A program made the position numbers and the translations under genes. The notes beneath the pieces were generated by a model. The model worked only from the letters and a program-made list of their open reading frames with translations. It made no database searches and was not told the DNA's origin. Source: a virus. From it: DNA of 64,000 nucleotides. Positions 4,414 to 61,252 of this stretch are shown here, piece by piece. The stretch spans positions 1 to 64,000 of IMG/VR virus record IMGVR_UViG_3300035696_000012; one strand, given 5' to 3'. The stretch's first letter is position 1. The number at the start of each line of letters is the position of its first letter.

Positions 4414-4683
4414 CTACCCTAATACCAACAATCCTTCTATATCAACCTTATACTCAACAAAATTGGTCTCTAACAGCTCCTCTGCTGCTTCCCCATATAA
4501 ATCACTATGGTCTAATAGGTATTCAATCATTGCAATCTTGAATTCTTTTACATTATTCATCGCAATAAATCCTGACAACTCATATAACATATTGTCCTGA
4601 ATGAATGCATACTTTTCATCCTCATTCATTGGATAGAACCTATACAATGGTATACCTGCTAAATCTATATCTTTATCTATCAT
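4414..4683 (-). CDS. Hypothetical protein, ends ..VEYKVDIEGLLVLG
   Basis: GGAG RBS; variant of shared C-terminal motif. Confidence 0.75.
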   Translation of the reverse strand: MIDKDIDLAGIPLYRFYPMNEDEKYAFIQDNMLYELSGFIAMNNVKEFKIAMIEYLLDHSDLYGEAAEELLETNFVEYKVDIEGLLVLG

Positions 4684-4790
4684 AATTATACTCCATAAAA
4701 TCTACAACAATACCAACAACTTCCAAAACAGCATTAGAATGGTACCAAAATAATACGATTGGATCTCTATTATTCTTTAATAAGAATCCC

Positions 4791-5333
4791 CTATAATCCC
4801 ACAGCCTTAGAAAACTCTGCCACAGCCTTACGATACTTAGCTGGATTATGCTCTTTCAATATATTGAACATATTTTTGATATTTAGCATATCGGTTGCTG
4901 GACTAGATTGATCGATAATATTCCATTCCATAGTTTTCTGCTCTTTGGTCTTAAGGGATTTAGCTTTAACATTATTTTTAAAAATTGGTATAATCTTTTG
5001 TTCCATTAAATCAAAAAATCTTTGTACTGAAACGTGTCTAACCCAAGACAACATATAATCTCTATGAAGAGAAACTGGTATAAATTTTATATATCTATTA
5101 AAATCATTAATTGAATCTGTAAGATTTGTATAGAATTCATGATCATCGAGAATATGCGCTTTGTTAGAAACTCCAACATTACTATAATTTTCTTGATCAT
5201 AATCTAAATCACGGATTTTATTAGACGGTAATCCACCATGCTTACCAGTAATGTGCTTTATGAAAGACTGCATAAAATGCTGCAACTCATGTCTTGCAAT
5301 ATCTTTTATATTTTCAATCGTATACTGTAAATA
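4791..5333 (-). pseudogene. HExxH (RHELQH) metalloprotease-like ORF lacking a normal start
   Basis: Frame open from TAA at 5334-5336; only TTG/ATG starts lie at or after the HELQH motif. Confidence 0.5.
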
Positions 5334-5367
5334 TTACTGCAATAACATAATTACTGCAATAACATAA
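5334..5367. repeat. 17-bp perfect tandem duplication TTACTGCAATAACATAA
   Basis: 5334-5350 equals 5351-5367; duplicates the 3' end of the upstream gene. Confidence 0.9.
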
Positions 5368-5656
5368 CAGTATCATATATCCTTATATATTCTGGAAAAT
5401 ACTCCTGTATAGCAAGAAAACAATACTCTATCTTATCGTTATACTTAGCTTGCAGACATTTAATAATATATGCCTTTACTCTTGTGTTATCATAACAGAG
5501 TTCAATCTCTTCCTTGGAACGAGAGATATAACAAGTTGCAGAAGATGGATTATTATATAATGCAGAATTGGCATTATTCATCCAGCAAGAAGTACATGGT
5601 TTAGATGGCTTTAGATCCTTGCAAACCTTTATTATCTTTGTTAAAGATTTCAACAA
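5351..5656 (-). CDS. Hypothetical protein, ends YFPEYIRIYDTVMLLQ (start may be ATG 5581)
   Basis: ORF track; shared C-terminal motif. Confidence 0.7.
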   Translation of the reverse strand: MLKSLTKIIKVCKDLKPSKPCTSCWMNNANSALYNNPSSATCYISRSKEEIELCYDNTRVKAYIIKCLQAKYNDKIEYCFLAIQEYFPEYIRIYDTVMLLQ

Positions 5657-6296
5657 ATTCCTTACTCAATAATAATAACTTATTAGTTAGTTTTTTATTG
5701 AGGTAAAAATGCGTTTCATCATTAAGAAAACTCATTCCCGTTGAAAGATATGCTTGAGTTTCATCAATATAAACTTTTGGTGTATAACCCTTTATTTTTA
5801 GCCATGAATTAATTGCAAGAAGAATATCTTTTGGAATAGATTTTACAAGAGATTTCATAATTGATTTATAATCATTATTTAGATAATAAAACCCATGAGC
5901 AATTTCATGATTTAATGTGGTTTTGTTATTTTTTAAATAACCAATTAAATAAAAATTTTGGGAGGATTTTTTACAATGACGATAAATATTTAACATTTCA
6001 TGATCGTATATATTGCGGTCTGGAATGGCATTGTTGAAAACTTGTTCTATAACATATGAAGGAATATTGAACCCGTTCCAATCAGACGGGTATGTAAATG
6101 AATTATCGCCGTATTTTTTAGAATACCAGCGCATAAAAGAAAGAATTGTAAAAGATTTATTCCTAAATTTAGGAGAAGAAGACTCGTAGAATTCTTGATA
6201 GCGTAGAAAATGCATACATAAATCATATCGGTCTTGAAATTGTAAACCAAATATATTTGGTTTGATTTCTTTTAATGTGTAATTTGCAGTTTTCAT
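5601..6296 (-). CDS. Conserved phage protein with HExxH (HEIAH) motif
   Basis: Start MKTANY; zincin-like motif. Confidence 0.7.
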   Translation of the reverse strand: MKTANYTLKEIKPNIFGLQFQDRYDLCMHFLRYQEFYESSSPKFRNKSFTILSFMRWYSKKYGDNSFTYPSDWNGFNIPSYVIEQVFNNAIPDRNIYDHEMLNIYRHCKKSSQNFYLIGYLKNNKTTLNHEIAHGFYYLNNDYKSIMKSLVKSIPKDILLAINSWLKIKGYTPKVYIDETQAYLSTGMSFLNDETHFYLNKKLTNKLLLLSKEFVEIFNKDNKGLQGSKAI

Positions 6297-6568
6297 ATAA
6301 GTATAATTACCTTTTCTAACCAATCATAGTATTGAGGATAATATAGTTTTATTGCTTCTTTTAAATAAAGAGAATAAAAATTATATTCAAAACCTTCGGT
6401 CCTTATTACGGATTTAATGTAATTTTTAATTTCGGATTGATGTTTTAAATCAAATTCATATTTCCACCATTCAATCCAACATTTTGATTGATATAATTTA
6501 GATACATCGTGATTTTGTGCCCAATTACAAACAAAACATAATGGTATATTTAAAGATTTGCAAAGCAT
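6293..6568 (-). CDS. Hypothetical protein, ends YYPQYYDWLEKVIILI
   Basis: ATGA overlap with downstream gene; shared C-terminal motif. Confidence 0.7.
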   Translation of the reverse strand: MLCKSLNIPLCFVCNWAQNHDVSKLYQSKCWIEWWKYEFDLKHQSEIKNYIKSVIRTEGFEYNFYSLYLKEAIKLYYPQYYDWLEKVIILI

Positions 6569-6584
6569 TGTTATATTATTGTGT

Positions 6585-6881
6585 ATGAGAAAAACTGTTG
6601 TTGAATATGTGAAGAAAAGTTTAAGAAGAGTTTGGGGGCGGAGCAAGCAAAGAAACGGCGCGTTGAAAAACGCTAAGGTCGAAAGAGGAAAATATAGATG
6701 CGCTTGTTGCGGAAAGATATTCAGACGAAAAGATATTGAAGTTGATCATAAGGTTGCTGTGGGGCGGTTTGTTGATTTTGATACATACATTGAAAGATTG
6801 TTTTGTGATAGCAAGGGGCTCCAAGTGTTATGCAAAGGATGCCATAGAACTAAGACTAAAAAAGATATAAAATCATTTTAG
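6585..6881 (+). CDS. HNH endonuclease
   Basis: CACC..EVDH..VLCKGCH..KT zinc-HNH signature. Confidence 0.85.
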   Translation: MRKTVVEYVKKSLRRVWGRSKQRNGALKNAKVERGKYRCACCGKIFRRKDIEVDHKVAVGRFVDFDTYIERLFCDSKGLQVLCKGCHRTKTKKDIKSF

Positions 6882-7163
6882 GATTCTAAATTTATCCGCT
6901 TCCTCCTCCGTAATCATTGTGAATGTAATGCCGGCGATTGAAAAATATGGCATATCATCTTTTGTTCTTCCAAAAACCGAATATTTCATAACATTACTAT
7001 TATCAGAATAACTGGTAGAAACAATTTTTATGTAATATTTTGCTGGCAAAATAAAATCATAATAACCAGTTAGTTCAATATAATCAAAAATATTTGTAAG
7101 GCTATATTTACGTGAAAGAGTAATAGTTTTGTCTATAATATCTTCATCTATATATTTTTTCAT
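6873..7163 (-). CDS. Hypothetical protein
   Basis: ORF track; ATGA-type coupling. Confidence 0.7.
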   Translation of the reverse strand: MKKYIDEDIIDKTITLSRKYSLTNIFDYIELTGYYDFILPAKYYIKIVSTSYSDNSNVMKYSVFGRTKDDMPYFSIAGITFTMITEEEADKFRILK

Positions 7164-7396
7164 ATTAGTAATAATAATTTATTAAGATCATTTTTCAAAT
7201 GAGGAAAATCCTTATGTATTATTTCAATCGCATATTCAATCATTGGCACACCTTTATCTTGCCCGATTGAATTAAAGGTTGAAATCATAACTGCCATGGT
7301 TTTCTTTTGCTCTTCGATTCCTTGCGCATCATACATAACTTGGCATATTGATTTTTTGAAATCTTTGATTAATTTTGAGATTTTTTTGTCCATCAT
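7160..7396 (-). CDS. Hypothetical protein, ends DFPHLKNDLNKLLLLI
   Basis: Shared C-terminal motif. Confidence 0.75.
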   Translation of the reverse strand: MMDKKISKLIKDFKKSICQVMYDAQGIEEQKKTMAVMISTFNSIGQDKGVPMIEYAIEIIHKDFPHLKNDLNKLLLLI

Positions 7397-7439
7397 TGAA
7401 TTTTAATTCCTTAATTAAATTATGTCCATCGTTGTAAAA

Positions 7440-7667
7440 TTAAATTAATATAATAAGTTTGTTTAAAGATTTTTCTAGATGCGGACAAGTGTAAATTGCA
7501 ACAGATAAAAAGTTACTTAAACTAAGATCATTATATTGTTTTATATACCTCATAAATATTTTAATTTTTTGTTTGTCATCGGTTGCTTCGATTAAATCGA
7601 TCGCTAATCTAAAAAACATTGTATCGTCCCATCTACCTATAATTTTATCCATTATATATTTCCTCAT
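7440..7667 (-). CDS. Hypothetical protein, ends TCPHLEKSLNKLIILI
   Basis: Shared C-terminal motif. Confidence 0.75.
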   Translation of the reverse strand: MRKYIMDKIIGRWDDTMFFRLAIDLIEATDDKQKIKIFMRYIKQYNDLSLSNFLSVAIYTCPHLEKSLNKLIILI

Positions 7668-8209
7668 TTTAATAATAAGATTGAATTGATTTTAGAAAAT
7701 AATTTTTCCTCATTAGAAAAATCAAACCTATTAAAAGGAATATGTGGTATAGAATAGTATTTTTCTAACGATGTTGTATTATAATCTGTAATCATAAGGT
7801 CTGAGTTTTTATCATTATAATTTACAATAACATATAAAACACTATTATAATAAAATTTGAAATATTCAATATATGGTATAGCTTTAAAAGCGCTAACTGA
7901 TCTATCGTAAAAAAGTTTTATTGTTCTGCTAAATGATTTACAATTTTGGCATTCTCTTTTTAAGAGAATGTCTAACTCATATAATGAAATAAATTGGTTT
8001 GTAGAATTGGTAAATGATATATTACCATTTATAATTAATATAGAAAACTCGAATGTATCTATATTTGGTTCCATAAAATATTGGGTTTTTATGGAAATTG
8101 TTAATTTGTTATTATGAATAATTGTTTCACCCTGATCTGAAGTTATTGTCGTGGGAAAATCACATAATGGACAATTCTTATATTCATCTATAAATTGTTT
8201 TAGATTCAT
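7664..8209 (-). CDS. Zn-finger (CPLC) hypothetical protein, paralogue 1 of 3
   Basis: Start MNLKQFIDEYKNCPLC; ends FDFSNEEKLFSKINSILLLK. Confidence 0.75.
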   Translation of the reverse strand: MNLKQFIDEYKNCPLCDFPTTITSDQGETIIHNNKLTISIKTQYFMEPNIDTFEFSILIINGNISFTNSTNQFISLYELDILLKRECQNCKSFSRTIKLFYDRSVSAFKAIPYIEYFKFYYNSVLYVIVNYNDKNSDLMITDYNTTSLEKYYSIPHIPFNRFDFSNEEKLFSKINSILLLK

Positions 8210-8213
8210 ATTT

Positions 8214-8900
8214 TTATTTATCTGCCAATAAGAAAATTGAATCAATTCTAGAAAATATTTTCTTAGTATTTTCAAATTTAAAGTAATCATCATCAACTAA
8301 GTGAATTCTTTTTTCTTGAAAATAATTATGAGAATTTGATCCATCAATGCTTGTTTCAACAAGAAAAAAAGAAGTTTTAGATATATTATAATCATTAATT
8401 ATTTTAATATGTTTTCCTATTTGTTCTTCAACAGAGTAAAATTTATATATTTCATGATATATTTGTAATCCAGCTATACCAAAAATATAAGTTCCATCTT
8501 CATTATTTTTTATTTCCGAATCTGTTGATTCAAAATCGCCGCTTGCTTCATACTCACACACCTTAAGGTCTGGGTTTGAACAACTTAATTTCAAATTAAA
8601 AAAAGATAGGGATGCATCAAAATTTCCAGTTAGACTATTATTAGGTATATTTATTCTTGTATTTAATTTTTCTATATTGATTATTTCAGTTTCTGTGGGA
8701 TCAAATTTTATTGATATTTCTTCTGGTTTTTGATTAGAAGGAACGTAATCAATACTTTTTAATATATTATATTTTTTATTATCATTACTAAATGGTATTA
8801 TTGTTGCCGATATTTCATATTCTAATTTATTAGAACATATTTGACAAATAGATCTGTATTCAATTAATTCTGAAAATGATTTAAATTCTCTCGATGGCAT
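8214..8900 (-). CDS. Zn-finger (CQIC) hypothetical protein, paralogue 2 of 3
   Basis: Ends FKFENTKKIFSRIDSIFLLADK. Confidence 0.75.
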   Translation of the reverse strand: MPSREFKSFSELIEYRSICQICSNKLEYEISATIIPFSNDNKKYNILKSIDYVPSNQKPEEISIKFDPTETEIINIEKLNTRINIPNNSLTGNFDASLSFFNLKLSCSNPDLKVCEYEASGDFESTDSEIKNNEDGTYIFGIAGLQIYHEIYKFYSVEEQIGKHIKIINDYNISKTSFFLVETSIDGSNSHNYFQEKRIHLVDDDYFKFENTKKIFSRIDSIFLLADK

Positions 8901-8901
8901 A

Positions 8902-9432
8902 TTATCCTAATAATTGTATTATTTTTAATTTTTTATCTATTTTCTTTTTGGATGAAAAATCGAAATCCATTAATGGAAGTGAAATAATTTTAGTTGAATA
9001 ATTTACTGTGATATGAACCGATGATATTAAATTAATAAAATCATTATTTATTACAAAATGTATTGTAGACTGATTTCTAATGAAATGACTTTTTTCTAAC
9101 AATATGTTAGATACATATAATTCATTTTTTAATAATGTGCAAGTCCCAGTATAAAAAAAATGATATTTATTGCACTGTTTACCAATAATTAATCTAAGCA
9201 AGCTTTCTTGGCTGCAGTAATTTTCGGAAATCTTATTGTTGAATAAATTAATTGAAAATTTTTTTAATTCTTTTTGTGCGGGGGAAAAAATTAAATCCGT
9301 GTTGTTTATGGTATTAGAGTGATAGCCATGAAGTGTAATTATAGGGCTTGTTCTTTTTTTACACAGAGGGCAAAATTCTATATAATTAAAAAAGTCAAAT
9401 AAATTATTAAATTGTTGATATGCCACTAACAA
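8902..9432 (-). CDS. Zn-finger (CPLC) hypothetical protein, paralogue 3 of 3
   Basis: Ends FDFSSKKKIDKKLKIIQLLG. Confidence 0.7.
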   Translation of the reverse strand: MLVAYQQFNNLFDFFNYIEFCPLCKKRTSPIITLHGYHSNTINNTDLIFSPAQKELKKFSINLFNNKISENYCSQESLLRLIIGKQCNKYHFFYTGTCTLLKNELYVSNILLEKSHFIRNQSTIHFVINNDFINLISSVHITVNYSTKIISLPLMDFDFSSKKKIDKKLKIIQLLG

Positions 9433-9453
9433 TAATATATCGACAAATTAAAT

Positions 9454-10119
9454 TTAAGTTGATATTTCGTGTTGTTTTACAGATTGTATTAGCTGTGCTA
9501 ATGATTGATTCTTAAAATCATATTTATTTTTATAAATATTTAATGCTTTTTGTGTTTCAGGTCCTAAGATTCCGTCTTCTTTTATTGGTAATATATCACC
9601 CGCTGGTACTAAAATTTGATTTAATTTTGTTTGAATTTCTTTTGGTATTGATGGATACCCCTTATTTTGGGCAATTTGTTTTGCTGGAGCCTTAGTTTTT
9701 GGTTCTTCCGGTGGCGCAGGCATATTTGATTGATTATTTATTTGAGATTTTAATGAATCTATGTATGGAAATAAATTGTTAGAGGCAAAATTTAAAGTAT
9801 TCTGATCTTTTGATTTTGTCAATATTTGATATATTTGAGTGGTAGTATTTACTAGATCTAGAAAAGAAAGCTCATGCTCTGGATATCTTATGGAGCTTAA
9901 TAAATTACGTGCCTCAATCGGAAAATTCATTGGGTCGGCGGTCCAACGATCGACCAATAGTTTTACCAATTCTTTTCTAACAGGATCTGTCGAATTTTGT
10001 GCAGATTTATTAAATTTTTTCTCAAATTTGGAAGCTAATTTTAATGATTTAGAAAAATCATATTGTTTATCAGTGTTAATTAATTGCTCAAATTTTTTAA
10101 CTTTATCAAATAAATCCAT
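9454..10119 (-). CDS. Protein with C-terminal peptidoglycan-binding (PG_binding_1-like) domain
   Basis: IQTKLN..EDGILGPETQKAL motif; GGAG RBS. Confidence 0.7.
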   Translation of the reverse strand: MDLFDKVKKFEQLINTDKQYDFSKSLKLASKFEKKFNKSAQNSTDPVRKELVKLLVDRWTADPMNFPIEARNLLSSIRYPEHELSFLDLVNTTTQIYQILTKSKDQNTLNFASNNLFPYIDSLKSQINNQSNMPAPPEEPKTKAPAKQIAQNKGYPSIPKEIQTKLNQILVPAGDILPIKEDGILGPETQKALNIYKNKYDFKNQSLAQLIQSVKQHEIST

Positions 10120-10264
10120 AACATAGCTCCTACTGACTCGATATGAGTCTATTAAAATAATGTATTATTACCAGGCAAAATAAGCAATATGGTTCGAAAA
10201 TAATTTATATTTTACAGCATTGACTATTATTCATATAGCCTTAAATTACAGCTAGAGGTAAGAA

Positions 10265-12295: not shown

Positions 12296-12298
12296 ATA

Positions 12299-15900: not shown

Positions 15901-16709
15901 CACCGTTTAGGTATGCTGGAAGTAAAAATAAATTACTTAAAATTCTAACTCCCGAAATAGATAAAATATTTCAACGTAATAAATGTCAAGGATTTGCAGA
16001 TGTATTTGTTGGCGGAGGATCTGTTTTATTAGAAATTGCAAATAAATATCCAAACATTTATTTATTTGCTAACGATAAAGATTATTGGATATATTGTTTT
16101 TGGAAAATTGTTTCAGATGAAAATGTAAATAATATGAATAAATTATTAGATATAATGAAATCATCACCAACAATTTCATTATTTAATGAGTGGAGAGCAA
16201 ATACATCCGTCGATGAAATTGAGTGTGCTTATAAAGCTATATTTTTTAATCGTACAACATTTTCTGGTATCCTGACAAGTGGACCAATAGGTGGTCAAGA
16301 ACAAAGAAGTAAATGGGCAGTAAATTGCAGATATAATTATGATAAACTAAAAAATAAAATATTAAAATGTCATGATTTGTTGGTCGGAAGAACCAAAGTT
16401 TCTAACAATGATTTTATAAATTATAAAATTATGAATCATAATGATATTTTACTATATTGTGATCCTCCATATTTTGAAAAAGGAAATATGTTATATCGTG
16501 AAGGTATGAGTTTTGATGAACATAAAAATCTCTCTAATATACTATCTAGTAGACCTAACTGGATCTTATCTTATGATGATCATATAGAAATTAGAAAACT
16601 ATATAAAGATAAAAACATTATAGATCTCGCAGCTAATTACTGTATAAATGGTAAAAAAAATAATTGGAAAAAGAAAAACGAACTGATAATAACTTCGGAG
16701 AAACAATAA
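15888..16709 (+). CDS. N6-adenine DNA methyltransferase (Dam/D12 class)
   Basis: FRYAGSK, DVFVGGGSV, NRTTFSG, DPPY. Confidence 0.9.
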   Translation: MATITPFRYAGSKNKLLKILTPEIDKIFQRNKCQGFADVFVGGGSVLLEIANKYPNIYLFANDKDYWIYCFWKIVSDENVNNMNKLLDIMKSSPTISLFNEWRANTSVDEIECAYKAIFFNRTTFSGILTSGPIGGQEQRSKWAVNCRYNYDKLKNKILKCHDLLVGRTKVSNNDFINYKIMNHNDILLYCDPPYFEKGNMLYREGMSFDEHKNLSNILSSRPNWILSYDDHIEIRKLYKDKNIIDLAANYCINGKKNNWKKKNELIITSEKQ

Positions 16710-17329
16710 TGCACGAAAACAAAGTAGAACTGATTGGAACATATGGTGGTGATGAAACTCATGCGTTAAGTGCTTGGACTTCGACATCAAGAGATTTAAC
16801 GGATGAGAAGCGTGGTAGAATTGGCAAACTACTAAAAATGCTTGGAGAAGAGGGTCATGGAACTCCGTTTGAAAAATCATCATTGCATTTTTTAGTTACA
16901 ACAGAAATTGCCACACATATACAAATCATAAAACATAGAATAGGTGTTAGTTTCAATGGTGAAAGCGCGCGATATAAAGAATTAAAAGATGATAAGTTTT
17001 ATATACCAAGAGATTGGATGCCTGAGGAGCAAGCATTATTGATTGAACACTGCGAAGAATCAATTCGTAAATACCATGAGTGTTTAGCTAGATTAGTATC
17101 ATCTGGCATGCCAAAGAAGAGAGCAAAGGAAAGCGCGCGTTTTTACTTACCATACGCTAATCAAATAACTGCCGATGTTATGTTTAATTTTAGATCTTTT
17201 ATGCATTTTGTAGGATTACGTAATACTGATCATGCTCAGTTAGAGATTAGAGATGTGTCGGAAAAAATGTTAGGGTTAATAAAAGAAACAGGTAAATTTA
17301 ATCTTTCATTGGAAGCATTCGGCTACTAA
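16709..17329 (+). CDS. thyX: Flavin-dependent thymidylate synthase
   Basis: KHRIGVSFNGESARY (ThyX motif), AR..LP, HAQLEIR; TAATG overlap. Confidence 0.9.
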   Translation: MHENKVELIGTYGGDETHALSAWTSTSRDLTDEKRGRIGKLLKMLGEEGHGTPFEKSSLHFLVTTEIATHIQIIKHRIGVSFNGESARYKELKDDKFYIPRDWMPEEQALLIEHCEESIRKYHECLARLVSSGMPKKRAKESARFYLPYANQITADVMFNFRSFMHFVGLRNTDHAQLEIRDVSEKMLGLIKETGKFNLSLEAFGY

Positions 17330-17356
17330 CTCATCGCAATAATTCGCTATTGTGTT

Positions 17357-37428: not shown

Positions 37429-37443
37429 ATGAGGAATGAGTAA

Positions 37444-42440: not shown

Positions 42441-42986
42441 TTATTTAACAATAAACAAAATATTATCAATTATTCTAATACGCTCTTGCATTGAATCTGT
42501 GTTTATTTGATAGTATTTAATAGAATATATTTCTAATAATAATTTTAACATAGCATCTATACTAACAACGGCATCCCAATTTAATTGTTCTCGAACACCA
42601 TCATTTTTTAATGTTGCTTTGGATGGACGAACAAAAAATATAATTGCATCTTTTAAATCATTAATATATTGCTCAAACTCTGGTCGTTGAATTAGCTCAT
42701 TGGTTATTATTGAGTGTTGAGCCGAATAGGCAATACAATCTAATAATGATCTGTCTGCAACAAAATCAACTAATTTAGATTCTTCTAACAATTGACGATT
42801 GAATATTTCTGTCTGATATGAATTTACTACTAGTATATCCGAACGAAGCGAATCGACATTAAGTTCCTCTTGAGCTAAAACAAGTCTCGCTATTTCTGGT
42901 AAAATAGGGATGTTATATTTTTTATTAACATAACGAGTTAATGTAGTCTTTCCAACGGAATGTGCTCCAATGAAATATATTTTCAT
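42441..42986 (-). CDS. P-loop nucleotide kinase/ATPase (AAA_28/NadR-like)
   Basis: GAHSVGKTT, ADRSLLDCIAY. Confidence 0.8.
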   Translation of the reverse strand: MKIYFIGAHSVGKTTLTRYVNKKYNIPILPEIARLVLAQEELNVDSLRSDILVVNSYQTEIFNRQLLEESKLVDFVADRSLLDCIAYSAQHSIITNELIQRPEFEQYINDLKDAIIFFVRPSKATLKNDGVREQLNWDAVVSIDAMLKLLLEIYSIKYYQINTDSMQERIRIIDNILFIVK

Positions 42987-43014: not shown

Positions 43015-43683
43015 TTATAGTACTACGAAATCTCTATCAATAAATAATACTAATGTATTTGGATCTTTTGCGAATCCAAGTTTTTGCACGATGTTGCCGG
43101 TACTTGATGGTGGCGTTGCGGAAAACCCACCTGGCACTACATCTAAATAATATGTTGCAGTTGTTATTAACCCAGATTGTCCGCCAAGTTCTCCATAATA
43201 TAATACTACTGCTTGGTCTATTGCTGGTTTAGATTGAACTACACCAATAACTGGCTGTGATAGTGGTTGAGTTGCGCTTGCTAAATCAACATAATCTGAC
43301 GATGTTAGGTATACAACGTCATTTATATTAACATTTGTTGAACAAGTATATGTTCCTGAAATACTTCCTGATTGTTCGAATGGATTTCCAGTTCCAGTTG
43401 TAATACCATTACGATTTAAAAATCCAGTAAATGTTGGATCGAATGACATTAAATTAACATTGCTTTGAAATACTTTAATTTGTTTTGTGCGAAGTTTGTA
43501 ATATAGCTCGCCTTTTATTAAGGATGACTTAATTTCTTCTTCTGATATACCGCGTATTTTCATCAAATCTATATATCCCATTGGGGCAACTGGATTATTA
43601 AATATACTAATCCATTTTATGGATACATTTTGTACTACAAATGTAATATCAGTGGGATTTCTTCGATAGGCAAAAATATTCAT
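43015..43683 (-). CDS. Probable virion structural protein (cement/decoration-like C-terminal domain)
   Basis: GELGG.SGL..ATYYL..PG...TPPS..GNIVQKLG.A pattern. Confidence 0.55.
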   Translation of the reverse strand: MNIFAYRRNPTDITFVVQNVSIKWISIFNNPVAPMGYIDLMKIRGISEEEIKSSLIKGELYYKLRTKQIKVFQSNVNLMSFDPTFTGFLNRNGITTGTGNPFEQSGSISGTYTCSTNVNINDVVYLTSSDYVDLASATQPLSQPVIGVVQSKPAIDQAVVLYYGELGGQSGLITTATYYLDVVPGGFSATPPSSTGNIVQKLGFAKDPNTLVLFIDRDFVVL

Positions 43684-50066: not shown

Positions 50067-50696
50067 TTATAGTCGTATGTTTTTCTTCAAAACATCCAAC
50101 GCGCCATCAATCATTTTCATACAATAAAAACGCGATAGCTTCATTTTCTTGCAAACTTTGTTTATTGACAACGGCTTATCACCATCGACTCCGAACACAA
50201 GATTTACTATTTTCTTTTGCTCTTCGTTTAAGTGATCCATTGCTGAACCGATTACTTTGGTTATTTCTAAATCCTCCGTCAATTTTTCTGGTATATTTTT
50301 TTCTTCTTTTAACTCTGGCATTCTTGTTTCTCTGTGAGGCACATTGGTCTTAGCAAACTTTAATGGATATCTAATTACCGTATGAGCATTTGCACTACGA
50401 GTTATTCTCGTTTCTATATATTTATGAGCCCACCAAAAGAAAATACCTTTGCTCGGATCATAATTATTCATTGCCCTTACTAAAACTTCTAATCCTTCTT
50501 GGTTTAAATCTTCGTAATTAGAAAATCCTTTATACTTATTGGTTCGCATTGACACGAGGTAAAAAAACTTATCTATACATATTTGTTCGTGTCTTCTGTA
50601 CGCTGCAATATCCTCTTGGCTTTTTGTCTCTTCGCTTTTGTTTCGTAATTGAATAAGTGTCGTCATAAGATTTTGAGCTTCTTCGATAGATACCAT
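50067..50696 (-). CDS. sigma70-family RNA polymerase sigma factor
   Basis: EDLNQEG..YDPSKG.F..WA..YI region 2; region-4 HTH. Confidence 0.85.
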   Translation of the reverse strand: MVSIEEAQNLMTTLIQLRNKSEETKSQEDIAAYRRHEQICIDKFFYLVSMRTNKYKGFSNYEDLNQEGLEVLVRAMNNYDPSKGIFFWWAHKYIETRITRSANAHTVIRYPLKFAKTNVPHRETRMPELKEEKNIPEKLTEDLEITKVIGSAMDHLNEEQKKIVNLVFGVDGDKPLSINKVCKKMKLSRFYCMKMIDGALDVLKKNIRL

Positions 50697-51271: not shown

Positions 51272-51598
51272 CTATATTAGGAGTAAATAATCATTTGTAT
51301 GATTTTCTTTTTCAATAATCTTTATTGTTTTATCATTTATTTCAGTGAATGAAATTATATATCGTTCATTGAAATCTGATTTATCGCCTAATTTTTTTAT
51401 AGCTTTTGCCTGCTGCTTATCTATGCTACGAACATAATTAAGTAATTCATTTTTATCACTCATTATGGTGTGGATTATTCGACTATACCTATTGCCTTCT
51501 ATTGTTCCATTAATAAAATTAGGGTATCTTTTATTGAATAGATATTTATCTGCAACGCCGTAATAGATTTTATCGGGGTCGATTTCTTTTTCCAGCAT
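51272..51598 (-). CDS. Hypothetical protein, ends NDYLLLI
   Basis: ORF track. Confidence 0.65.
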   Translation of the reverse strand: MLEKEIDPDKIYYGVADKYLFNKRYPNFINGTIEGNRYSRIIHTIMSDKNELLNYVRSIDKQQAKAIKKLGDKSDFNERYIISFTEINDKTIKIIEKENHTNDYLLLI

Positions 51599-51887: not shown

Positions 51888-51888
51888 T

Positions 51889-52632
51889 TTATTCCTTTGA
51901 TTTTTTAATTAGCGGTATAACGTGATCTACAATATATCTTTGAAGTTTTAAATTTGAATATTTTCTACCATCAATTTCTATTAATGGAATATTATTTTCT
52001 TTACAAATTTGTCGTTTATAGGCATCTCTTTTTTGTTGTTCCTCAAAATTAACTTTAGCTCTTTCCAGTGAAATGCCACCATATTTGACTGGCTGGTAAT
52101 GATGTTGTCCATTATATTCAATAACAAAATTAAAAATAGGTAAATAAAAATCAAATCTTAATTTTCTTGTTGCATTTGGTATTATTAATTTAATATATTT
52201 TTCAGTTTCAAATTTTATTTGATGATCTATTAGAATATCATATATTAATTGGGCGTTTCTTCTACTATTACATATAGGGCATCCCTGTCCCTGTAAATGA
52301 TGTGTGGGTTTTTGCGTAAAAATACCATGTTTTGGACAATTTATTTCCACATTAGTATCATCGTTTATATAATTAACTTTATAATAATCATATTTATTTT
52401 TATGAATCTTTTCTGCTTTTTTTATAAATTCAGGTGTTGTCGATTTTTGTTTTCCACCACATATTGGACATCCTTGCCCTTGCAAATGTTTATGTGGTTT
52501 TTGCTGGAATAGCCCATGTTTCAAACACATAATATTAACTTGTATATTACCATTTACGCAATCTACGAAATCATAACTATACATGTTTTTATGAATATAT
52601 TTTGCTTTTGTTATAAATTGCTCCGTTGTCAT
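51889..52632 (-). CDS. Homing-endonuclease-like protein: DUF723-type repeats plus Vsr-like nuclease
   Basis: C.KHG.F.Q....HL.GQGCP.C x2; RFDFYLP..IEYNGQHHY. Confidence 0.8.
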   Translation of the reverse strand: MTTEQFITKAKYIHKNMYSYDFVDCVNGNIQVNIMCLKHGLFQQKPHKHLQGQGCPICGGKQKSTTPEFIKKAEKIHKNKYDYYKVNYINDDTNVEINCPKHGIFTQKPTHHLQGQGCPICNSRRNAQLIYDILIDHQIKFETEKYIKLIIPNATRKLRFDFYLPIFNFVIEYNGQHHYQPVKYGGISLERAKVNFEEQQKRDAYKRQICKENNIPLIEIDGRKYSNLKLQRYIVDHVIPLIKKSKE

Positions 52633-53051
52633 AGAAATAATGATGCTAATTTTTCAGCTTTACACTGCTTGCATCCTCTTCCTTGTAAATGAGCATCTGG
52701 CGTCTGTTTAAATACACCGTGATTTGGGCATACGATATCAATTGATGACAGCGTATCTTTATATACTGACTGAGTATAAATATACTTATCTTCATGAACC
52801 AATGATGCTTCTTCTATAAATTCTTCTAGCGTTTTGGTCCGTAAAATAGCTGAGCGTTTTTTACCGCACTCTTTACATCCACGACCTTGTAAATGTTTTG
52901 CTGGACTTTGATCAAAAACCCCGTGAATTAAACATTTTATTTTTCCTTTTGTATGAGCATTTACATAAATAAATAGCGAATAATCAAACTTATTTTCATG
53001 TATTTTATTGCTACGTTCTATAAATTCAGTAAGACTCATCCTATTAGACAT
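52629..53051 (-). CDS. DUF723-type repeat protein without nuclease domain
   Basis: Two HG.F.Q...HLQGRGC..C repeats. Confidence 0.75.
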   Translation of the reverse strand: MSNRMSLTEFIERSNKIHENKFDYSLFIYVNAHTKGKIKCLIHGVFDQSPAKHLQGRGCKECGKKRSAILRTKTLEEFIEEASLVHEDKYIYTQSVYKDTLSSIDIVCPNHGVFKQTPDAHLQGRGCKQCKAEKLASLFL

Positions 53052-53059: not shown

Positions 53060-54439
53060 CTATATTTTATTAATTTTATCCGATATATCCTCCGGATCTT
53101 TTTTCCCATCACCCTCAATATAAACATCATTTAATAATGCGCAACATTCCATATGTTTTTTTAATTTACCGCTAGCCAATTCACCACGTCTATTTTTCAC
53201 CATCTCTACGCTAAAATCTGGACAATGTTTTTCATTTGGTCTAGTATTTATTACAATAAGCATATCAACGTTGTCTGCAATTTGAGTGGCACGCCTTAAA
53301 TCTTTTATTCCGAAACTACCGTCTTTACCACCGCCCTTTGGATTTAGCTGAACCGCACTCAAAACTATTGTTTCTTTGGCGCGCGCTAACTCATGCACTC
53401 CCTCTGATATTTGCGCCTGCATAAGCCAATCATCCGTGGCATCTGAATCAACACTCATCAAATTCAAATAGTCAATTACAACAACATCTGGCTTACCATA
53501 TTGCGTAGCATAATCATCAATCATATTTTCTAATGCTTCTGGCGTCGCTTTTCGTGGTAAATCGATGACCGTGAAATTTTTATTGTAATTTTTTATAAAT
53601 TTAAAACTCATACCAACGCGAGCTTTTTGTTCGTCATCTAGATTTGCATCTCTAATGTTTTTCTGTGGAACCATAGCAATCCTAGCTATTGCTCTTTGCA
53701 TATAATCTTCATAATTCATTTCTAATGAAAATAATAATACATTGGATCCTGTATTAAAATTTGATGTCATAGAAATATCATTGGCACCTAACCACATTTG
53801 TATTGCTGAGTTCATTAATAATAATGATTTGCCCGAGCTAGTGATGCCTGCGAACACAATCAATTCACCACTCCGTAATCCTAGATTTGTATTATCTATA
53901 AAATCATACCCTGTTCTTATACCAGTTCCATAATTAGGGTCTCGCATTTTATTATTATAGGTATTCTTAAAATCATCAGCGTATTCTTTTAGTGTTCCTT
54001 TTTTGTATGATCCTATTTTATTTACATTTTTGATATTATTGAGGGCACTCTGGATATCACTAACTGATTTTTTTAAATCTATTTTATCTAAATCTCCGAT
54101 ACTTTCTTTTAGTCCGACAATAAGTTTTTCGGAATATCGTTTTTTTAGTTTTTCTAAATCGTGCTTATATTCCTTGTCATCGTAATTAAATGACATTACT
54201 CTATCGAATAACTGACTGCTATGTTCTGCAAATGCTTTATTTTTCGCAGGATCAATACGCTCAATCAGTACTCGTTTTGTAGGTATGTCCTTGAATGATT
54301 TTATATACTCAATAACTAATTTAGCGAAACGCCACACACTTGGATCGAATAACTTCTCATTGCAATCGTGAGCGAACTCCAATGCATATTTACGATTAGT
54401 TAGAATAGTTTTTAGAATAGATAGGTCGAGGTCGTTCAT
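53060..54439 (-). CDS. DnaB-like replicative helicase
   Basis: AGITSSGKS, FSLEM, VIDYLNLM, LSAVQLN, KNRRG. Confidence 0.9.
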   Translation of the reverse strand: MNDLDLSILKTILTNRKYALEFAHDCNEKLFDPSVWRFAKLVIEYIKSFKDIPTKRVLIERIDPAKNKAFAEHSSQLFDRVMSFNYDDKEYKHDLEKLKKRYSEKLIVGLKESIGDLDKIDLKKSVSDIQSALNNIKNVNKIGSYKKGTLKEYADDFKNTYNNKMRDPNYGTGIRTGYDFIDNTNLGLRSGELIVFAGITSSGKSLLLMNSAIQMWLGANDISMTSNFNTGSNVLLFSLEMNYEDYMQRAIARIAMVPQKNIRDANLDDEQKARVGMSFKFIKNYNKNFTVIDLPRKATPEALENMIDDYATQYGKPDVVVIDYLNLMSVDSDATDDWLMQAQISEGVHELARAKETIVLSAVQLNPKGGGKDGSFGIKDLRRATQIADNVDMLIVINTRPNEKHCPDFSVEMVKNRRGELASGKLKKHMECCALLNDVYIEGDGKKDPEDISDKINKI

Positions 54440-55122
54440 TTATGTCTTGCCCTTCTTACTCCATCGCGTTGGTTTTGTTTTGAAGATAGTGGTCGTAGAT
54501 TACTTAATGCCCAGCAATCAATAAAATTTTGATCTGTCATGAGTGTATATTCAAATTCACTATGAGGTTTTATGTGATCTATTTGCCAAGTCCAAGTATT
54601 CGGATCATTATCATCCCAAATTTTGGGATTATACTTACCATAATTATCCCAATTCATCCATGACTCGAATTGTTTTTCTAAATGGGTTTTTAATTCATTT
54701 ATCGAATATGGTAAAACTGCCAAAATAGAATTAGATTTTTTTGAATTTCTTCTTTTTAATCCGGTGCTAATAGCTTTTGACATATTTGTTCTTAACATAT
54801 ATGTTATATCTATTTCTTTACGTTTTTTCTCGCTAGCGTTTCTTTGTTCCCTATGTGTTTCTCTATAATTTTTAGAGCGTACCAATAATTCCTCTCTATG
54901 TCTGACATACCAATTTCTTTTATTTGCTTCCATATTATCTTTATTATTTTTTGCATATTCCTTACTGTATGCTGCTAATTTTTCTTTATTTTTTGTTTGA
55001 TATTCTTTATTATATTCTTTAATACACATTTTACATTTAGGGTTTGTAAATTTTAATTGACCATCATTAAAATCAGATTCCGTTCTTGAACAACTGCAAA
55101 ATTTACAATATATTAATATCAT
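54436..55122 (-). CDS. HNH homing endonuclease
   Basis: N-terminal CxxC pairs, Lys/Glu-rich linker, WDNYG..WQIDHIKP..WALSNLRPL. Confidence 0.85.
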   Translation of the reverse strand: MILIYCKFCSCSRTESDFNDGQLKFTNPKCKMCIKEYNKEYQTKNKEKLAAYSKEYAKNNKDNMEANKRNWYVRHREELLVRSKNYRETHREQRNASEKKRKEIDITYMLRTNMSKAISTGLKRRNSKKSNSILAVLPYSINELKTHLEKQFESWMNWDNYGKYNPKIWDDNDPNTWTWQIDHIKPHSEFEYTLMTDQNFIDCWALSNLRPLSSKQNQRDGVRRARHK

Positions 55123-55853
55123 TTTTGATTTTTCCTAAAATCTTTATCTAACACTGATATTATTTTAATACGATTAAAAATACTATCTATGCTCTCTTTA
55201 ATAGATCCCTTAAATGCTTGTGTTGGATTTGGACTATTGCTACATATAAATAGTGGCATTTTATTTTGAGATCTTCCTCGCAAGATAGGTTCTACTGAAC
55301 GAGCAAAAAGATCGCTAGCACCATCTGTAATATATTTAGAATCCATTTCATCAATTACTAATAAATCAACCCCCATCAACTCTTTTCTAATTAAATATTT
55401 ATCATCATACGGCGCTTCAATTAATGTATTAACGATATCATTAAGCGTTGTATATAGACATGAATAATTCTTCTCACAAGCTCGTTTTAGAATACAAGAA
55501 ACGGTCATCGTCTTCCCAATTCCATGGCTACCAGCTAGGCACAACGACATCCCATCACTATATACCTTTGGGAGATTTTCGGTAAGGCGGGCATATACTT
55601 TTTTTAGTTCGTTGGAGCCAACAAAATCATCCATACTTAATCCCCAATATTCTATTTGAATATTCGATTCAGCATATCTATTATAAGCAATAAGCATAAT
55701 ACTACATTTTTCACACACTCCGTCATATGCTTGCTCGATTCTCGTTATGTTCTTTGTCGAGCAAGTTTTACAAGACTGAACCAGTGATAGTATTTTCTCT
55801 TCAACTTTGCGGCGTGGAAGATTATTTAGTGATTGTGATCTTACTATGCTCAT
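55119..55853 (-). CDS. DnaC/IstB-like AAA+ ATPase (helicase loader)
   Basis: GSHGIGKT, LLVIDEM, SN. Confidence 0.85.
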   Translation of the reverse strand: MSIVRSQSLNNLPRRKVEEKILSLVQSCKTCSTKNITRIEQAYDGVCEKCSIMLIAYNRYAESNIQIEYWGLSMDDFVGSNELKKVYARLTENLPKVYSDGMSLCLAGSHGIGKTMTVSCILKRACEKNYSCLYTTLNDIVNTLIEAPYDDKYLIRKELMGVDLLVIDEMDSKYITDGASDLFARSVEPILRGRSQNKMPLFICSNSPNPTQAFKGSIKESIDSIFNRIKIISVLDKDFRKNQK

Positions 55854-56236
55854 TGTTTCTTTACTCCACCAAACAACATTGACAATGACGAACCATAACT
55901 AACCGGTGCATTTCCTGATGGCTCATGTGAGCGAAGTTTTTCACTTATCTCTTCTAGCTCTAAGCTATTCAGCTCTGCTTTTAGTTCCGCCAGTGTCTGT
56001 ATATCAGTATTGGTCTTGATTGGCTTTTCTACAACCTCTTCGTATTCTTCTTTAATATTCGATTCGCTGAATGAAAAAAACAAAACATCTTCGAGTGTCT
56101 TTTGTATTACTGTGATTTTGTTGCCCGTGAGGGATTTTATGGCTGATTTGCCGTCTGACCAAGATATAACGGTTCCACTGACTTGAACGCCATTGCGGAA
56201 GAAGGCTGTTATGTTGCTATTTTGTGGAGGTATCAT
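55850..56236 (-). CDS. Hypothetical protein, possible Sm-like N-terminus
   Basis: FFRNGVQVSGTVISWSD. Confidence 0.6.
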   Translation of the reverse strand: MIPPQNSNITAFFRNGVQVSGTVISWSDGKSAIKSLTGNKITVIQKTLEDVLFFSFSESNIKEEYEEVVEKPIKTNTDIQTLAELKAELNSLELEEISEKLRSHEPSGNAPVSYGSSLSMLFGGVKKQ

Positions 56237-56526
56237 AATAGTAATAAATACTTTCTCATTTGATCTGCGTATTGCGGATAGTTATCTATGATATATTGAA
56301 AATAATCTTCCTGAGCAAATAATATTTCTTGTGTTATAAATTTAATTATATTAGGGATTGGATTTAGTCCTCTGTCTTCATATATAGAAATAAACTTAGC
56401 TATATACCCCGCTGTAAATGGTGTTCCGTAATGTATTTCAATTACTTCCGTAAAATCGGTATCATATAATGTGTGATGAACCGTTGGAAGATCTAAAAAC
56501 TTCATTTCATCTTTTATGAATGTCAT
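56233..56526 (-). CDS. Hypothetical protein, ends NYPQYADQMRKYLLLL
   Basis: Shared C-terminal motif. Confidence 0.75.
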   Translation of the reverse strand: MTFIKDEMKFLDLPTVHHTLYDTDFTEVIEIHYGTPFTAGYIAKFISIYEDRGLNPIPNIIKFITQEILFAQEDYFQYIIDNYPQYADQMRKYLLLL

Positions 56527-56852
56527 ATTAGCATCAAATACTTTTCTATATCATTTTTGTATTGAGGATATAACTGATATATAAATTGCACTTCTTCATC
56601 AAGTCCTTCTTTGAAAGGAATAATAGCTCTGCTATGAATATATAATGCTAAATTATAAGGCACATTATAACTTCTTCTTTTGTAAATATCTACTATGTTT
56701 TCAATTATTTTTTTAAAATGTTCCATTAAATCGTCATCATCACCATTGGTATTCATAACACCAAAACTTTCATTAAACTCTGTATCTATTAACCAATAAG
56801 CGGTCTGATATTCATTCGATGCGAAGCCTACTTGATCTATTGATTGAAACAT
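56523..56852 (-). CDS. Hypothetical protein, ends LYPQYKNDIEKYLMLI
   Basis: Shared C-terminal motif. Confidence 0.75.
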   Translation of the reverse strand: MFQSIDQVGFASNEYQTAYWLIDTEFNESFGVMNTNGDDDDLMEHFKKIIENIVDIYKRRSYNVPYNLALYIHSRAIIPFKEGLDEEVQFIYQLYPQYKNDIEKYLMLI

Positions 56853-57112: not shown

Positions 57113-57684
57113 TTTACTTTTTCCAAAATCTTCATATCAAATCCCGCTTCAACCAATTTCTCCATCATCTCTTTATAGTCTTCATTATCTTTTACGAAGG
57201 CTAAATCTCCATAGTTATTTATTGGCGCAGTGTATTGCTTTACTATTGCTAAATAGTTTGCTGGCAATAATGTCGTTCGATCGATCGAGGCATTAGGTAT
57301 GAGTTTTAGGAACTTATACTTATTTACTAACTCAACATTAGTAATAAATCCTAATGCAGTTATTCGTTTCTTTCTTGCGACCACTTCCGTTTCAAATAAC
57401 CAATCTATGTAATCCTTCAATACTGCAACATCTGATGTTATCATTTGTGCAAGGCTTTTCATCCTGTACATTTCATATGATTTGCTGGGCACATTATTAT
57501 TGAAACGGAATGTATATTTCACTCCATAATGCTTTTCATATCTTTTACAAAAATATGCAAGCAAATCGATTAAGCTCCACTTAGATATATCTAATGTTTC
57601 GTGATTTTTGAACTTTGCAAAAAACTTGGTATATGCTGAACTTATTTCGTTTTCTTGCTGTGTTTCCATAGATTTATTTTTCAT
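57109..57684 (-). CDS. Hypothetical replication-region protein (start MKNKSM)
   Basis: ORF track; lies in helicase-loader operon. Confidence 0.65.
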   Translation of the reverse strand: MKNKSMETQQENEISSAYTKFFAKFKNHETLDISKWSLIDLLAYFCKRYEKHYGVKYTFRFNNNVPSKSYEMYRMKSLAQMITSDVAVLKDYIDWLFETEVVARKKRITALGFITNVELVNKYKFLKLIPNASIDRTTLLPANYLAIVKQYTAPINNYGDLAFVKDNEDYKEMMEKLVEAGFDMKILEKVK

Positions 57685-58586
57685 TTCTTTTTTTATGCCG
57701 TATTCTATATATACCGTCTTCATAGTTTTGTTTTGCCGATAGTGGTCGTAAATTGCTCAATTCCCACGCTTTTTTAAAATTTGGATGTTCCATGGTATCG
57801 TACGGTAAATCTGAATGCGGAATTATATGATCTAATTGCCACTTCCAAGTTGGACAATCTTCGTCATCCCACAGTTCTGCATCGTATATACCCCAATTAT
57901 GCCAATTCATCCATGACTCGAATTGATTTTCTATATGGCTTTTTAATTGTTCAACTGAATAATTCAAATATTTCAAAAAAGATCTATTATTTTTAGTACC
58001 ACCATATGATTTTAGCGTGTGTCTAACCGAAATAGAAACATATTCTCTTAACTTAAATGAAGGATCTGTTTTTAGCCTATTTTTCTTATAAGATCTGGAT
58101 CTTTTTGCTATTTTATCTTTATTCTCTTCTCTATATTGTTTTTCTCGCTTTTATTTTATCTTTATTATTTTCTCTATACAATTTGCGTTTTCCATTTGCA
58201 CAATATAATCGATCATACTCGGATTTTTTATCTTTTGTTTTATCTCTATAAATTTTTGATTTTTCTTTTACAATAGGTTTATTTTCTTCATATCGTATAT
58301 GGTTTTTTAATAAAATTTCTGTTTTGTTTTCCTCATAATACAAATGTTTTCTTGTTTTTACTTTTTCAGCGTTTTCTTTATTATATTCTTTTTGATATTC
58401 TTTTATCAAATCACTATTATTTTTATAATATTCTTTTTGTTTCTCGCACAATAAAATTCTATTATTTTCTCTATATTCGCGTTTTTTGCATGAATTACAC
58501 TTAGGCGATTCACTTTTTAATTCTTTTTTGGCAAATTTCTTTATATCTGTTTGTTTATTGCAAAAACTACAAAATATTTGTTCCAT
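57674..58586 (-). pseudogene. Frameshifted HNH homing endonuclease, paralogue of 54436-55122
   Basis: N-half (58131-58586) and HNH half (57674-57976) join into one frame by skipping one base in the A5 run at 58139-58143. Confidence 0.85.
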
Positions 58587-58647
58587 GGCAAATTCTCCGA
58601 ATACAACTAAATATACGGATTATTGGATATATCACAACTACGCGTAA

Positions 58648-60117: not shown

Positions 60118-60327
60118 TTACCACTTCTCGTATCCTTCTGATATTCTCTTACTCAATTTCTTATTAAATTCAATTCTTTTTACTTCTTCTCGTCTGCGAT
60201 TACAAAAATCACATTCACAATCGCACCCGTCCTTATGTTGTTCTCCGCCAACACAATAATGCTGGTTATCATCTTTCGATACTAATTTTCCATTAGGATT
60301 TATTCGTATTTTATATTTCTTACTCAT
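60118..60327 (-). CDS. Small Cys-rich protein (HKDGCDCECDFC)
   Basis: ORF track. Confidence 0.65.
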   Translation of the reverse strand: MSKKYKIRINPNGKLVSKDDNQHYCVGGEQHKDGCDCECDFCNRRREEVKRIEFNKKLSKRISEGYEKW

Positions 60328-60340
60328 TTATGAAATTTAA

Positions 60341-60583
60341 TCAGATTTCTTTTTTATAAAACTTGAACTTAGCCGCTTGTGCTTCACGCTGTGTTTTCTG
60401 TTCTTCTGTTTCCACTATTGGCTCAAATGGCATATCAGGATGAATATTAGTTTTATTTTTATTTGTCAATGTGTGGTATATTGCATAATATATTACTATT
60501 GGTATAATAATAGGAAGAAATATTATATAAAATAATGCAACGAAAAATAGTTCTATTTTCAGTCGATCATAATCGCCTATCAT
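60341..60583 (-). CDS. Single-TM membrane protein, paralogue A (start MIGDYD)
   Basis: Hydrophobic run then EP..ETEEQK..RE...KF.F. Confidence 0.7.
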   Translation of the reverse strand: MIGDYDRLKIELFFVALFYIIFLPIIIPIVIYYAIYHTLTNKNKTNIHPDMPFEPIVETEEQKTQREAQAAKFKFYKKEI

Positions 60584-60584
60584 C

Positions 60585-60842
60585 TTATTTCCGTTGGTCT
60601 TTACGGAACCTGAACTTAGATGTATATGTTTCACGCTTTGCCTTTTGCTCTTCGGTCTCCGGTATTGGCTCGGGCGGTACATATGGCTTTTCTGTCAATG
60701 CTTTATATATTGATATAGGAATGGTTATTGGAGCAAATAATACATACAACCCCACTCCAACAAGCACTAATTTACCAAATGAACTATATAAATCATGTCC
60801 ATCATCTATCCATTCCCACATTTTATCTATCGGATTTTTCAT
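60585..60842 (-). CDS. Single-TM membrane protein, paralogue B
   Basis: Same C-terminal motif as neighbour. Confidence 0.7.
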   Translation of the reverse strand: MKNPIDKMWEWIDDGHDLYSSFGKLVLVGVGLYVLFAPITIPISIYKALTEKPYVPPEPIPETEEQKAKRETYTSKFRFRKDQRK

Positions 60843-61252
60843 TTTAATATCAACATAGCTTCTATTTTTTCAATAGTCTGCTTATCATCCCATCTATTAT
60901 TGAATGCTTTTATAAGATCTTCGCATATCTTTCTGTGATCTACGAATCCCTCAATTATCCTCATTAGCTCTTTTTTTTCTTTTGATTTTTTATCATCATC
61001 TATTCTAATGGCGATATGACATTTTGGGCAATTATATATTTTTTCTACTGGCGGGGATGCGTAATTAACGGTTCCAGATCCGCTAGTAACTAAATACTGT
61101 CCTGATATCGTTGAGATTGGATTAGGGATATACATTCCTATATTCGATTGAGCAGCAGCCGATCCAAATGTGTTTCCACCGCTTAGATCACCGTCGTATT
61201 CTTTTGTTGAATCCGTTTCTATTAGTTTATATGAACATTGAGGGCAAAACAT
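60839..61252 (-). CDS. Zinc-ribbon protein, ends IEKIEAMLILK
   Basis: CPQC..CPKC. Confidence 0.7.
   Translation of the reverse strand: MFCPQCSYKLIETDSTKEYDGDLSGGNTFGSAAAQSNIGMYIPNPISTISGQYLVTSGSGTVNYASPPVEKIYNCPKCHIAIRIDDDKKSKEKKELMRIIEGFVDHRKICEDLIKAFNNRWDDKQTIEKIEAMLILK

Follow-up and report, generated by a model that had tools for sequence, protein, structure and literature searches.

A C-terminal tail shared by small accessory proteins of uncultured huge phages

Short terminal sequences that recur on different proteins are known from several systems. Encapsulation peptides of bacterial microcompartments (BMCs) are reportedly terminal amphipathic helices carried by unrelated cargo enzymes, and a single partner recognizes them as an address. 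The degrons and adaptor tails of AAA+ proteases include ssrA (...YALAA), SspB XB (...LRVVK) and apolar last five residues, and the docking tails of SspB XB, ssrA and the SSB C-terminus have a flexible linker. Clamp-binding C-terminal tails (bacterial QL[SD]LF or QLxLxL; gp43, gp33 and gp55 of T4 on gp45) dock different proteins on one hub, PDZ class II ligands end in h-x-h-COOH (h, hydrophobic residue), and poxvirus ankyrin proteins carry PRANC or F-box-like C-terminal modules that bind a hub. Here we describe a C-terminal tail, approximately E-K-h-h-h-L-x, found on 13 small proteins encoded in a 64,000-nucleotide stretch of phage DNA (the window), which is the first 64 kb of IMG/VR virus record IMGVR_UViG_3300035696_000012 (133,216 b; CheckV completeness 31%), and on many further proteins of related phages.

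The tail resembles most of these systems in some respects and departs from them in others. Like BMC encapsulation peptides, it is a short terminal helix with an h-x-x-h-h spacing on otherwise unrelated proteins, and its heptad pattern, with its position in two predicted structures (H84-96 in protein F and H65-77 in protein D), is that of a terminal amphipathic helix of approximately 15-20 residues. However, encapsulation peptides have a flexible linker and accompanying shell genes, whereas the tail has no linker in the models, the related phage genome G002 has no BMC gene, and the carriers are small orphan phage proteins, not BMC cargo enzymes. Like AAA+ degrons and adaptor tails, the phage tail is short, apolar and flush with the C-terminus of diverse proteins, but where ssrA-type signals present ...LAA-COOH on a disordered tail, it ends in h-h-L-x on a helix modelled as packed, with acidic residues upstream and a variable last residue. 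Its K-h-L-h-L-h also resembles the Q-L-x-L-x-L of clamp-binding tails, which likewise place a terminal hydrophobic hexapeptide on different proteins. Counting the last residue as -1, however, the position of the clamp glutamine is taken by lysine (-6) in 27 of 51 families, with glutamine outside the seven commonest residues there; clamp-binding tails are extended whereas the phage tail is modelled as helical, and its carriers are far too many for a replisome toolbelt. The comparison with PDZ class II ligands is mixed, with a hydrophobic -3 but a -1 that is lysine or glutamine in some families, and no PDZ_2 domain was found in the phage. Poxvirus PRANC-type proteins, like the tail carriers, come from large multigene families that diversify in their N-terminal part and keep a short helical module constant at the very C-terminus; the poxvirus proteins belong to eukaryotic viruses and the ubiquitin system, and the analogy is one of architecture, with no homology implied. 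No described equivalent was found in full-text literature searches, in keeping with the first-pass annotation of this DNA, which had known of no system with the motif; the tail is a shared module without published description.

The tail and its anchoring to the stop codon

Relatives of the window's record (G000) were retrieved by means of their DnaB helicase and comprise G001 (67 kb, 92% identical), G002 (406,470 b, 95% complete, 84% identical) and G003 (102 kb, 55% identical). The carriers, encoded in co-directional gene arrays, belong to a clade of uncultured huge phages of approximately 400 kb. The DnaB helicase shares no more than 25% identity with that of any deposited phage, a megablast search with 20 kb of the window gave no match, and no deposited phage is close.

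The tail had first been noticed on about ten proteins, in a list of 12 open reading frame (ORF) ends. All 12 exist, on the minus strand and with the last residues listed, but the set is wider, a 13th gene (6873-7163) having been overlooked. A core pattern, [YFC]P[QEH][YL]x3[h]x[KRTEN], searched in six frames over the whole 133,216-b record, matches only proteins B, C, D, E, F and G, in all six cases exactly 15 residues before the stop. Because the pattern was derived from these proteins themselves, an independent test was needed. For this, 32 tail families of G002 without a member in the record were used to train a 14-residue tail hidden Markov model (HMM). In the 135,136 six-frame residues of the record, the three top matches of this HMM are G (11.6 bits), D (10.1 bits) and F (8.9 bits). 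Each of the three is placed flush against the stop, and internal matches all stay below 6 bits.

The same anchoring is seen in G002, where 36 of 38 tail-HMM matches of at least 10 bits are flush with the stop and none is internal. Greedy ORFs of G002 end in [polar]-h-h-h-h-x in 62 of 625 cases, and this loose tail occurs at a rate of 0.099 per C-terminus versus 0.0024 per internal position, a 41-fold enrichment. The ORFs that carry it have a median length of 96.5 amino acids (aa), all lie on the main coding strand, and are concentrated among small proteins (55 of 370 ORFs of 150 aa or less versus 7 of 255 larger ORFs). The proposal that the motif is tied to the C-terminus is thus borne out, and equal occurrence at internal positions, which had been named as grounds for abandoning it, was not observed. 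Two further metagenomic contigs (L062 and L070) carry the same tail on several families, and two short contigs (L068 and L069) encode family members with a variant tail.

Across 51 body families the tail reads E(-10) x h(-8) E(-7) K(-6) [L/Y](-5) L(-4) [L/V/I](-3) L(-2) x(-1). The three polar positions (E at -10 in 24 families, E at -7 in 21, K at -6 in 27) carry 1.4-1.5 bits each even though they were not used in selecting the set. Many families have T, S or D at -12, an apparent helix N-cap, in place of which B to G of the window have a proline at -14. Hydrophobic residues follow a heptad pattern (-15, -12, -8, -5, -4 and -1); position -3 is hydrophobic, and at -1 most of the 51 families have a hydrophobic residue, ten a lysine and three a glutamine. 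The tail is a C-terminal helix of 12-15 residues with a leucine-rich last turn (h-h-h-L-x), under selection at the protein level, and the heptad pattern, together with the AlphaFold2 models of F and D described below, predicts the amphipathic helix that the first-pass annotation had proposed.

Carriers in the window and their predicted folds

The tail ends nine of 11 successive minus-strand genes between 4414 and 9432, if protein A and the 13th gene are counted. Protein A (4414-4683, 89 aa) ends in ...YKVDIEGLLVLG and scores low with the tail HMM; it is a genuine member of the tail family because its G003 orthologue (59% identical) carries the general tail, ...YKVDIEKLLSIG. Protein B (5351-5656) has 101 aa from a TTG start, or 76 aa from an ATG at 5581, and combines a CxxC N-terminus with the tail ...YFPEYIRIYDTVMLLQ, both of which are retained in its orthologues in G002 and G003 (93 aa). 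Protein C (6293-6568, 91 aa) likewise has a CxxC N-terminus and ends in ...YYPQYYDWLEKVIILI, its TGA stop overlapping the ATG of the next gene. The product of the 13th gene (6873-7163, 96 aa) ends in ...EEADKFRILK, a degenerate tail with a polar residue at -4 that is kept in its G002 and G003 orthologues (...EEADK[FY]R[IM]LK) and whose K-h-R-I-L-h form is also found in G002 and L070. Next by coordinate come protein D (7160-7396, 78 aa; ...DFPHLKNDLNKLLLLI), protein E (7440-7667, 75 aa; ...TCPHLEKSLNKLIILI), which has a TAA stop and lies approximately 40 nt from the next gene, and three larger proteins: H (7664-8209, 181 aa from its ATG; CxxC N-terminus), with the tail ...FSKINSILLLK, matched flush with the stop by the tail HMM at 4.5 bits; I (8214-8900, 228 aa), in which ...FSRIDSIFLLADK is a tail with a three-residue extension; and J (8902-9432, 176 aa), ending in ...KKLKIIQLLG.

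The remaining carriers, also on the minus strand, lie far from this array. Protein K (51272-51598, 108 aa) ends in ...TNDYLLLI, the hydrophobic end alone with the E/K part missing, and its orthologues end in ...DFILLI and ...KFLLLI. Proteins F (56233-56526, 97 aa; ...NYPQYADQMRKYLLLL) and G (56523-56852, 109 aa; ...LYPQYKNDIEKYLMLI) are whole-length paralogues, and protein Lq (60839-61252, 137 aa), with two CxxC pairs, ends in ...TIEKIEAMLILK, while all four of its orthologues end in ...[IL]E[KR][IL]EA[ML]L[IV]LK. The hydrophobic ends of the fibre-like proteins at 35287-39552 (plus strand) and of the proteins at 42441-42986 and 43015-43683 were not counted as tails, because the ends of their orthologues are ragged or different and the proteins are large or structural.

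The carriers had been described as otherwise unrelated, which holds only in part. With the last 18 residues removed, BLASTP found no match among B to G, and with 16 residues removed, each pairing of the groups B, C, D, E and F/G received an hhalign probability below 2%. When the tails are kept, alignments cover only the last 15-26 columns, except for B and C. The latter align over 59 columns (hhalign probability 30%) and by BLASTP over 94 aa, have the CxxC N-terminus in common, and judged from these sequences are probably paralogues. D and E, which align at 20-25% identity and jointly yielded a confident structural model, are probably paralogues as well. H, I and J (176-228 aa, 7664-9432) are tandem paralogues, each with an N-terminal CxxC and a common C-terminal FDFSxxxK...S-I-x-L-L end, and H and J align by BLASTP over 189 aa. 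Whole-length paralogy, which the first-pass annotation had named as grounds for abandoning its proposal, thus holds for F/G and probably for B/C and H/I/J, but was not detected among B/C, D, E and F/G once the tails were trimmed, and the 12 listed proteins fall into about seven body families. BLAST with bodies alone leaves 74 components.

The F/G family offers the deepest sampling. F and G can be aligned over their full length with 17 more sequences (15 of them from G002, along with the F orthologues of G002 and G003), share the motifs MFxS, DxDFxE (IxDxDFxE) and YExRxLN (YEKRNLNVAxNL), and belong to a family of proteins of approximately 95 aa with at least 17 copies in G002 (loci L044-L048). 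The family profile, which recovers G at E = 1e-16, was searched against 1.84 billion representatives and found 921 at E <= 1e-3, counted as clusters at 50% identity, and 366 at E <= 1e-10, nearly all of 85-130 aa. Among the best 150 matches, 147 have 80-135 aa, and 137 of these 147 end flush in ...KYxxD[IV]EKYLxL[ILMV]; the tail is conserved as strongly as the core motifs. No Pfam or PHROG model covers the family, and tblastn with one member found no match in 50,697 deposited phages. Pfam and PHROG scans of 30 tail-bearing proteins gave nothing above noise, word-based homologue searches with G and D returned only themselves or close orthologues, and an ESM Atlas search with C gave sub-threshold leads only.

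AlphaFold2 modelled F from the family alignment with a predicted local distance difference test (pLDDT) score of 90.1 and a predicted template modelling (pTM) score of 0.82, and D, from an alignment of D and E orthologues, with a pLDDT of 88.6 and a pTM of 0.73. The F model consists of three strands followed by four helices and the D model of four helices, and their N-terminal halves differ. In both, the proline begins the last helix, and both close with the same two-helix hairpin, matching a 26-residue stretch of sequence similarity. Searches of F against PDB and BFVD with Foldseek, and with the wide VIA-align search, gave nothing above generic matches (best Z 4.7), and those of D gave generic helical bundles only (Z up to 8.1). 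D residues 4-78 and F residues 32-97 match the same designed bundles (8f54_L, 9k7y_A and 9hnh_A), weakly, with Z scores of 7-8 for D and approximately 4 for F; as far as the models go, this could reflect a shared helical unit or merely a common arrangement.

Docking handle, structural helix or degron

We favor a reading in which the tail is a common docking or interaction handle, to which we assign a probability of roughly 0.4. The variable body would give each protein its own target, while the constant terminal helix would dock, by its hydrophobic face and free end, in a groove on a single partner common to all, either a host or a phage protein. We infer both the action in trans on one shared partner and what that partner might be. 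The docking reading is supported by the 41-fold end-anchoring, by the conserved polar positions and by the many unrelated-looking bodies, as well as by the strong conservation of the tail in the F/G family, its restriction to small accessory ORFs and the differing architectures of D and F. It is further supported by the all-or-none occurrence of the tail within families and by its presence in the relatives L062 and L070. A more far-reaching proposal, which we consider doubtful, is that this lineage-specific helix labels a tenth or more of the small accessory proteins, so that a single reader, from host or phage, handles the set by recruiting, localizing or destroying its members or the targets bound to them.

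Candidate readers were sought in the phage itself. ClpP, PDZ_2, AAA_5, HSP70 and BMC shell domains (PF00936) are all absent from G002, no MoxR-type AAA+ domain (AAA_5, PF07728) was matched at E <= 0.01 in G000 or G002, and the beta-clamp domain PF02767 has no match in G002, the search being of the phage genome only. AAA matches in G002 are limited to the DnaC-like loader and one 387-aa ORF. Since the phage lacks the readers sought, a reader would be a host protein or a phage protein that was not recognized.

Several observations weigh against the docking handle. First, no common partner of the tail was identified. Second, in both models the tail lies within the compact fold at a pLDDT of approximately 84-85 and without a flexible linker, so that the portable helix proposed by the first-pass annotation appears in these predictions as an integrated last helix rather than an added peptide. 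Third, constraint is lowest at the last residue (I, K, L, M, V or Q), which argues against tight recognition of a terminal side chain, and among orthologues the tail is no better conserved than the body (65% versus 70% identity), only its hydrophobic class being kept. Fourth, no gain or loss of the tail was seen within a family, and carriers of different families adjoin, as expected of old tandem duplication. Finally, none of the proteins scanned bears the tail on a known domain, and portability onto known folds was not seen.

Most of these points speak also for the leading alternative, which we hold to be nearly as likely as a docking handle. Here the tail would be a structural or oligomerization helix inherited from a single small helical domain after massive expansion by tandem duplication and divergence past recognition, its last helix closing the hydrophobic core or making a dimer interface with no reader acting in trans. 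The confident integration of the tail helix in the models favors such a history, as do the similarity of B to G over approximately 26 residues (helix, [YF]P, helix), which exceeds a tag, and the weak matches of D and the helical part of F to the same designed bundles. F/G, H/I/J and, probably, B/C and D/E are adjacent paralogues with different families as neighbors, the tail is all-or-none in families with the hydrophobic class alone conserved, its last residue varies, and it occurs on no known domain; E(-10) and K(-6) stand at i and i+4, like a helix-stabilizing salt bridge. However, descent alone fits poorly with the retention of K(-6), E(-7) and L(-2) over dozens of families in which hydrophobic core positions elsewhere are not kept in sequence, with N-terminal architectures that differ (strands in F, helices in D), and with families that precede the tail in other ways, such as GYILLT-EEQ..LLI and TKEEA...ERHYKLLILQ. 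It also gives no reason for nearly all families to stop one residue past L(-2), and over its last five positions the helix presents hydrophobic residues on every side, an arrangement that would be hard to bury in an 80-aa monomer.

A role as a C-terminal degron seems improbable to us. In that case a host AAA+ protease of the ClpXP/ClpAP, Lon or FtsH type, or its adaptor, would recognize the tail, and early accessory proteins would have short lifetimes or would deliver the targets they bind to the protease. Five apolar C-terminal residues are reportedly a classical destabilizing signal in Escherichia coli, and the tail is confined to small accessory proteins in early-type arrays; adaptor tails such as ...LRVVK of SspB are also short and apolar and may end in lysine, as do approximately one-fifth of tail families. 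The sequence is nevertheless unlike an ssrA-type ...LAA-COOH, the tail is predicted to be a packed helix and not disordered, -7 and -10 are acidic, the last residue varies, and the phage has no ClpP and no AAA matches beyond the loader and the 387-aa ORF.

The weakest alternative makes the tail a by-product of the nucleotide level, in which 3' ends double as the AU-rich initiation region, ATGA overlap or promoter for the gene that comes after. Of the 12 listed tails, six end in NNA-TGA and overlap the following ATG, which makes translational coupling a rival to be taken seriously. In G002 an ATGA overlap is found twice as often behind tail genes (18 of 60 versus 55 of 360), TGA stops follow 50% of tails versus 31% otherwise, and leucine and valine codons are moved to G/A-ending forms (p ~1e-6), a modest shift on top of the peptide constraint. 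Among leucine and valine codons of G002 tails, TTG is used at 0.30 versus 0.19 and GTG at 0.38 versus 0.13, with CTT and GTT depleted. Yet of the 60 genes that follow a tail in G002, 18 overlap by ATGA, 19 begin after 0-15 nt, six after 16-60 nt and 12 after more than 60 nt, so that tails also precede Shine-Dalgarno spacers and long gaps, and the TAA stop and approximately 40-nt gap of protein E make its tail independent of gene overlap. Tails use all six leucine codons, with lysine and glutamate codons as in the genome, AU-richness alone would equally yield K/N/Y-rich ends, orthologue swaps among L, I, V and M alter the DNA but preserve the peptide class, and the E-K pair (-7 and -6) stands 15-20 nt away from the following ATG, a distance too great for a Shine-Dalgarno sequence. 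Because synonymous codons and downstream context vary, selection acts on the peptide and not on the DNA, and the nucleotide-level explanation, to which we give very little credence, is largely refuted.

Genome setting and significance

The record has a GC content of approximately 30%, except for positions 1-4300 of the window, which have 51% GC; long ORFs of low complexity occupy both strands of that segment, which has no matches to rRNA, tRNA or Rfam families, and a scan of the window as a whole found no tRNA or Rfam family. An ORF of 471 aa matches Pfam Tubulin at 58 bits, above the cut-off (64267-64752 of G000, spanning the end of the window; 104412-104900 of G002). Despite this tubulin-family gene, the phage does not look like a nucleus-forming chimallivirus, in which a role of the tail as a nuclear import signal could be considered, because a multisubunit RNA polymerase domain (Rpb2_6) is missing from G002; chimallin itself was not searched for. 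A 209-aa ORF at 50067-50696 resembles a sigma-70-type factor by eye alone, no family-library scan having been made of it.

A DnaC-like loader is encoded at 55119-55853. Immediately upstream of DnaB, the record of the window has a 228-aa HNH-like gene (54436-55122), and another HNH-like ORF resembling it is found at 57674-57976; these genes look like homing-endonuclease traffic in the replication module. In three relatives (L003, L004 and L005, at approximately 9660-10004) the HNH-like gene upstream of DnaB is replaced by a tail-bearing gene of 110-114 aa, which ends in ...ERI[NQ][KR][LI]MV[LM][IA]. Two adjoining genes at 51889-53051 of the window (247 and 140 aa) are made of a repeated H-LQG-GCP-C zinc-ribbon-like unit, four of which occur in a 385-aa gene of G003 (L005, 8456-9613). 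In L062, a contig of a related huge phage, two IS605 OrfB/TnpB-like genes (16094-19659) stand beside arrays of tail-bearing small genes.

If one partner does read the tail, a single pull-down would reveal a hub that manages dozens of orphan accessory proteins, and the tail would provide the first functional grouping for approximately 10-15% of the small "dark matter" genes of the phage as well as a transplantable handle of 12 residues. Even if the helix is structural, the analysis defines a large unannotated family of phage proteins (the 921 clusters above) and supplies a simple C-terminal signature for recognizing real genes in genomes of this kind.

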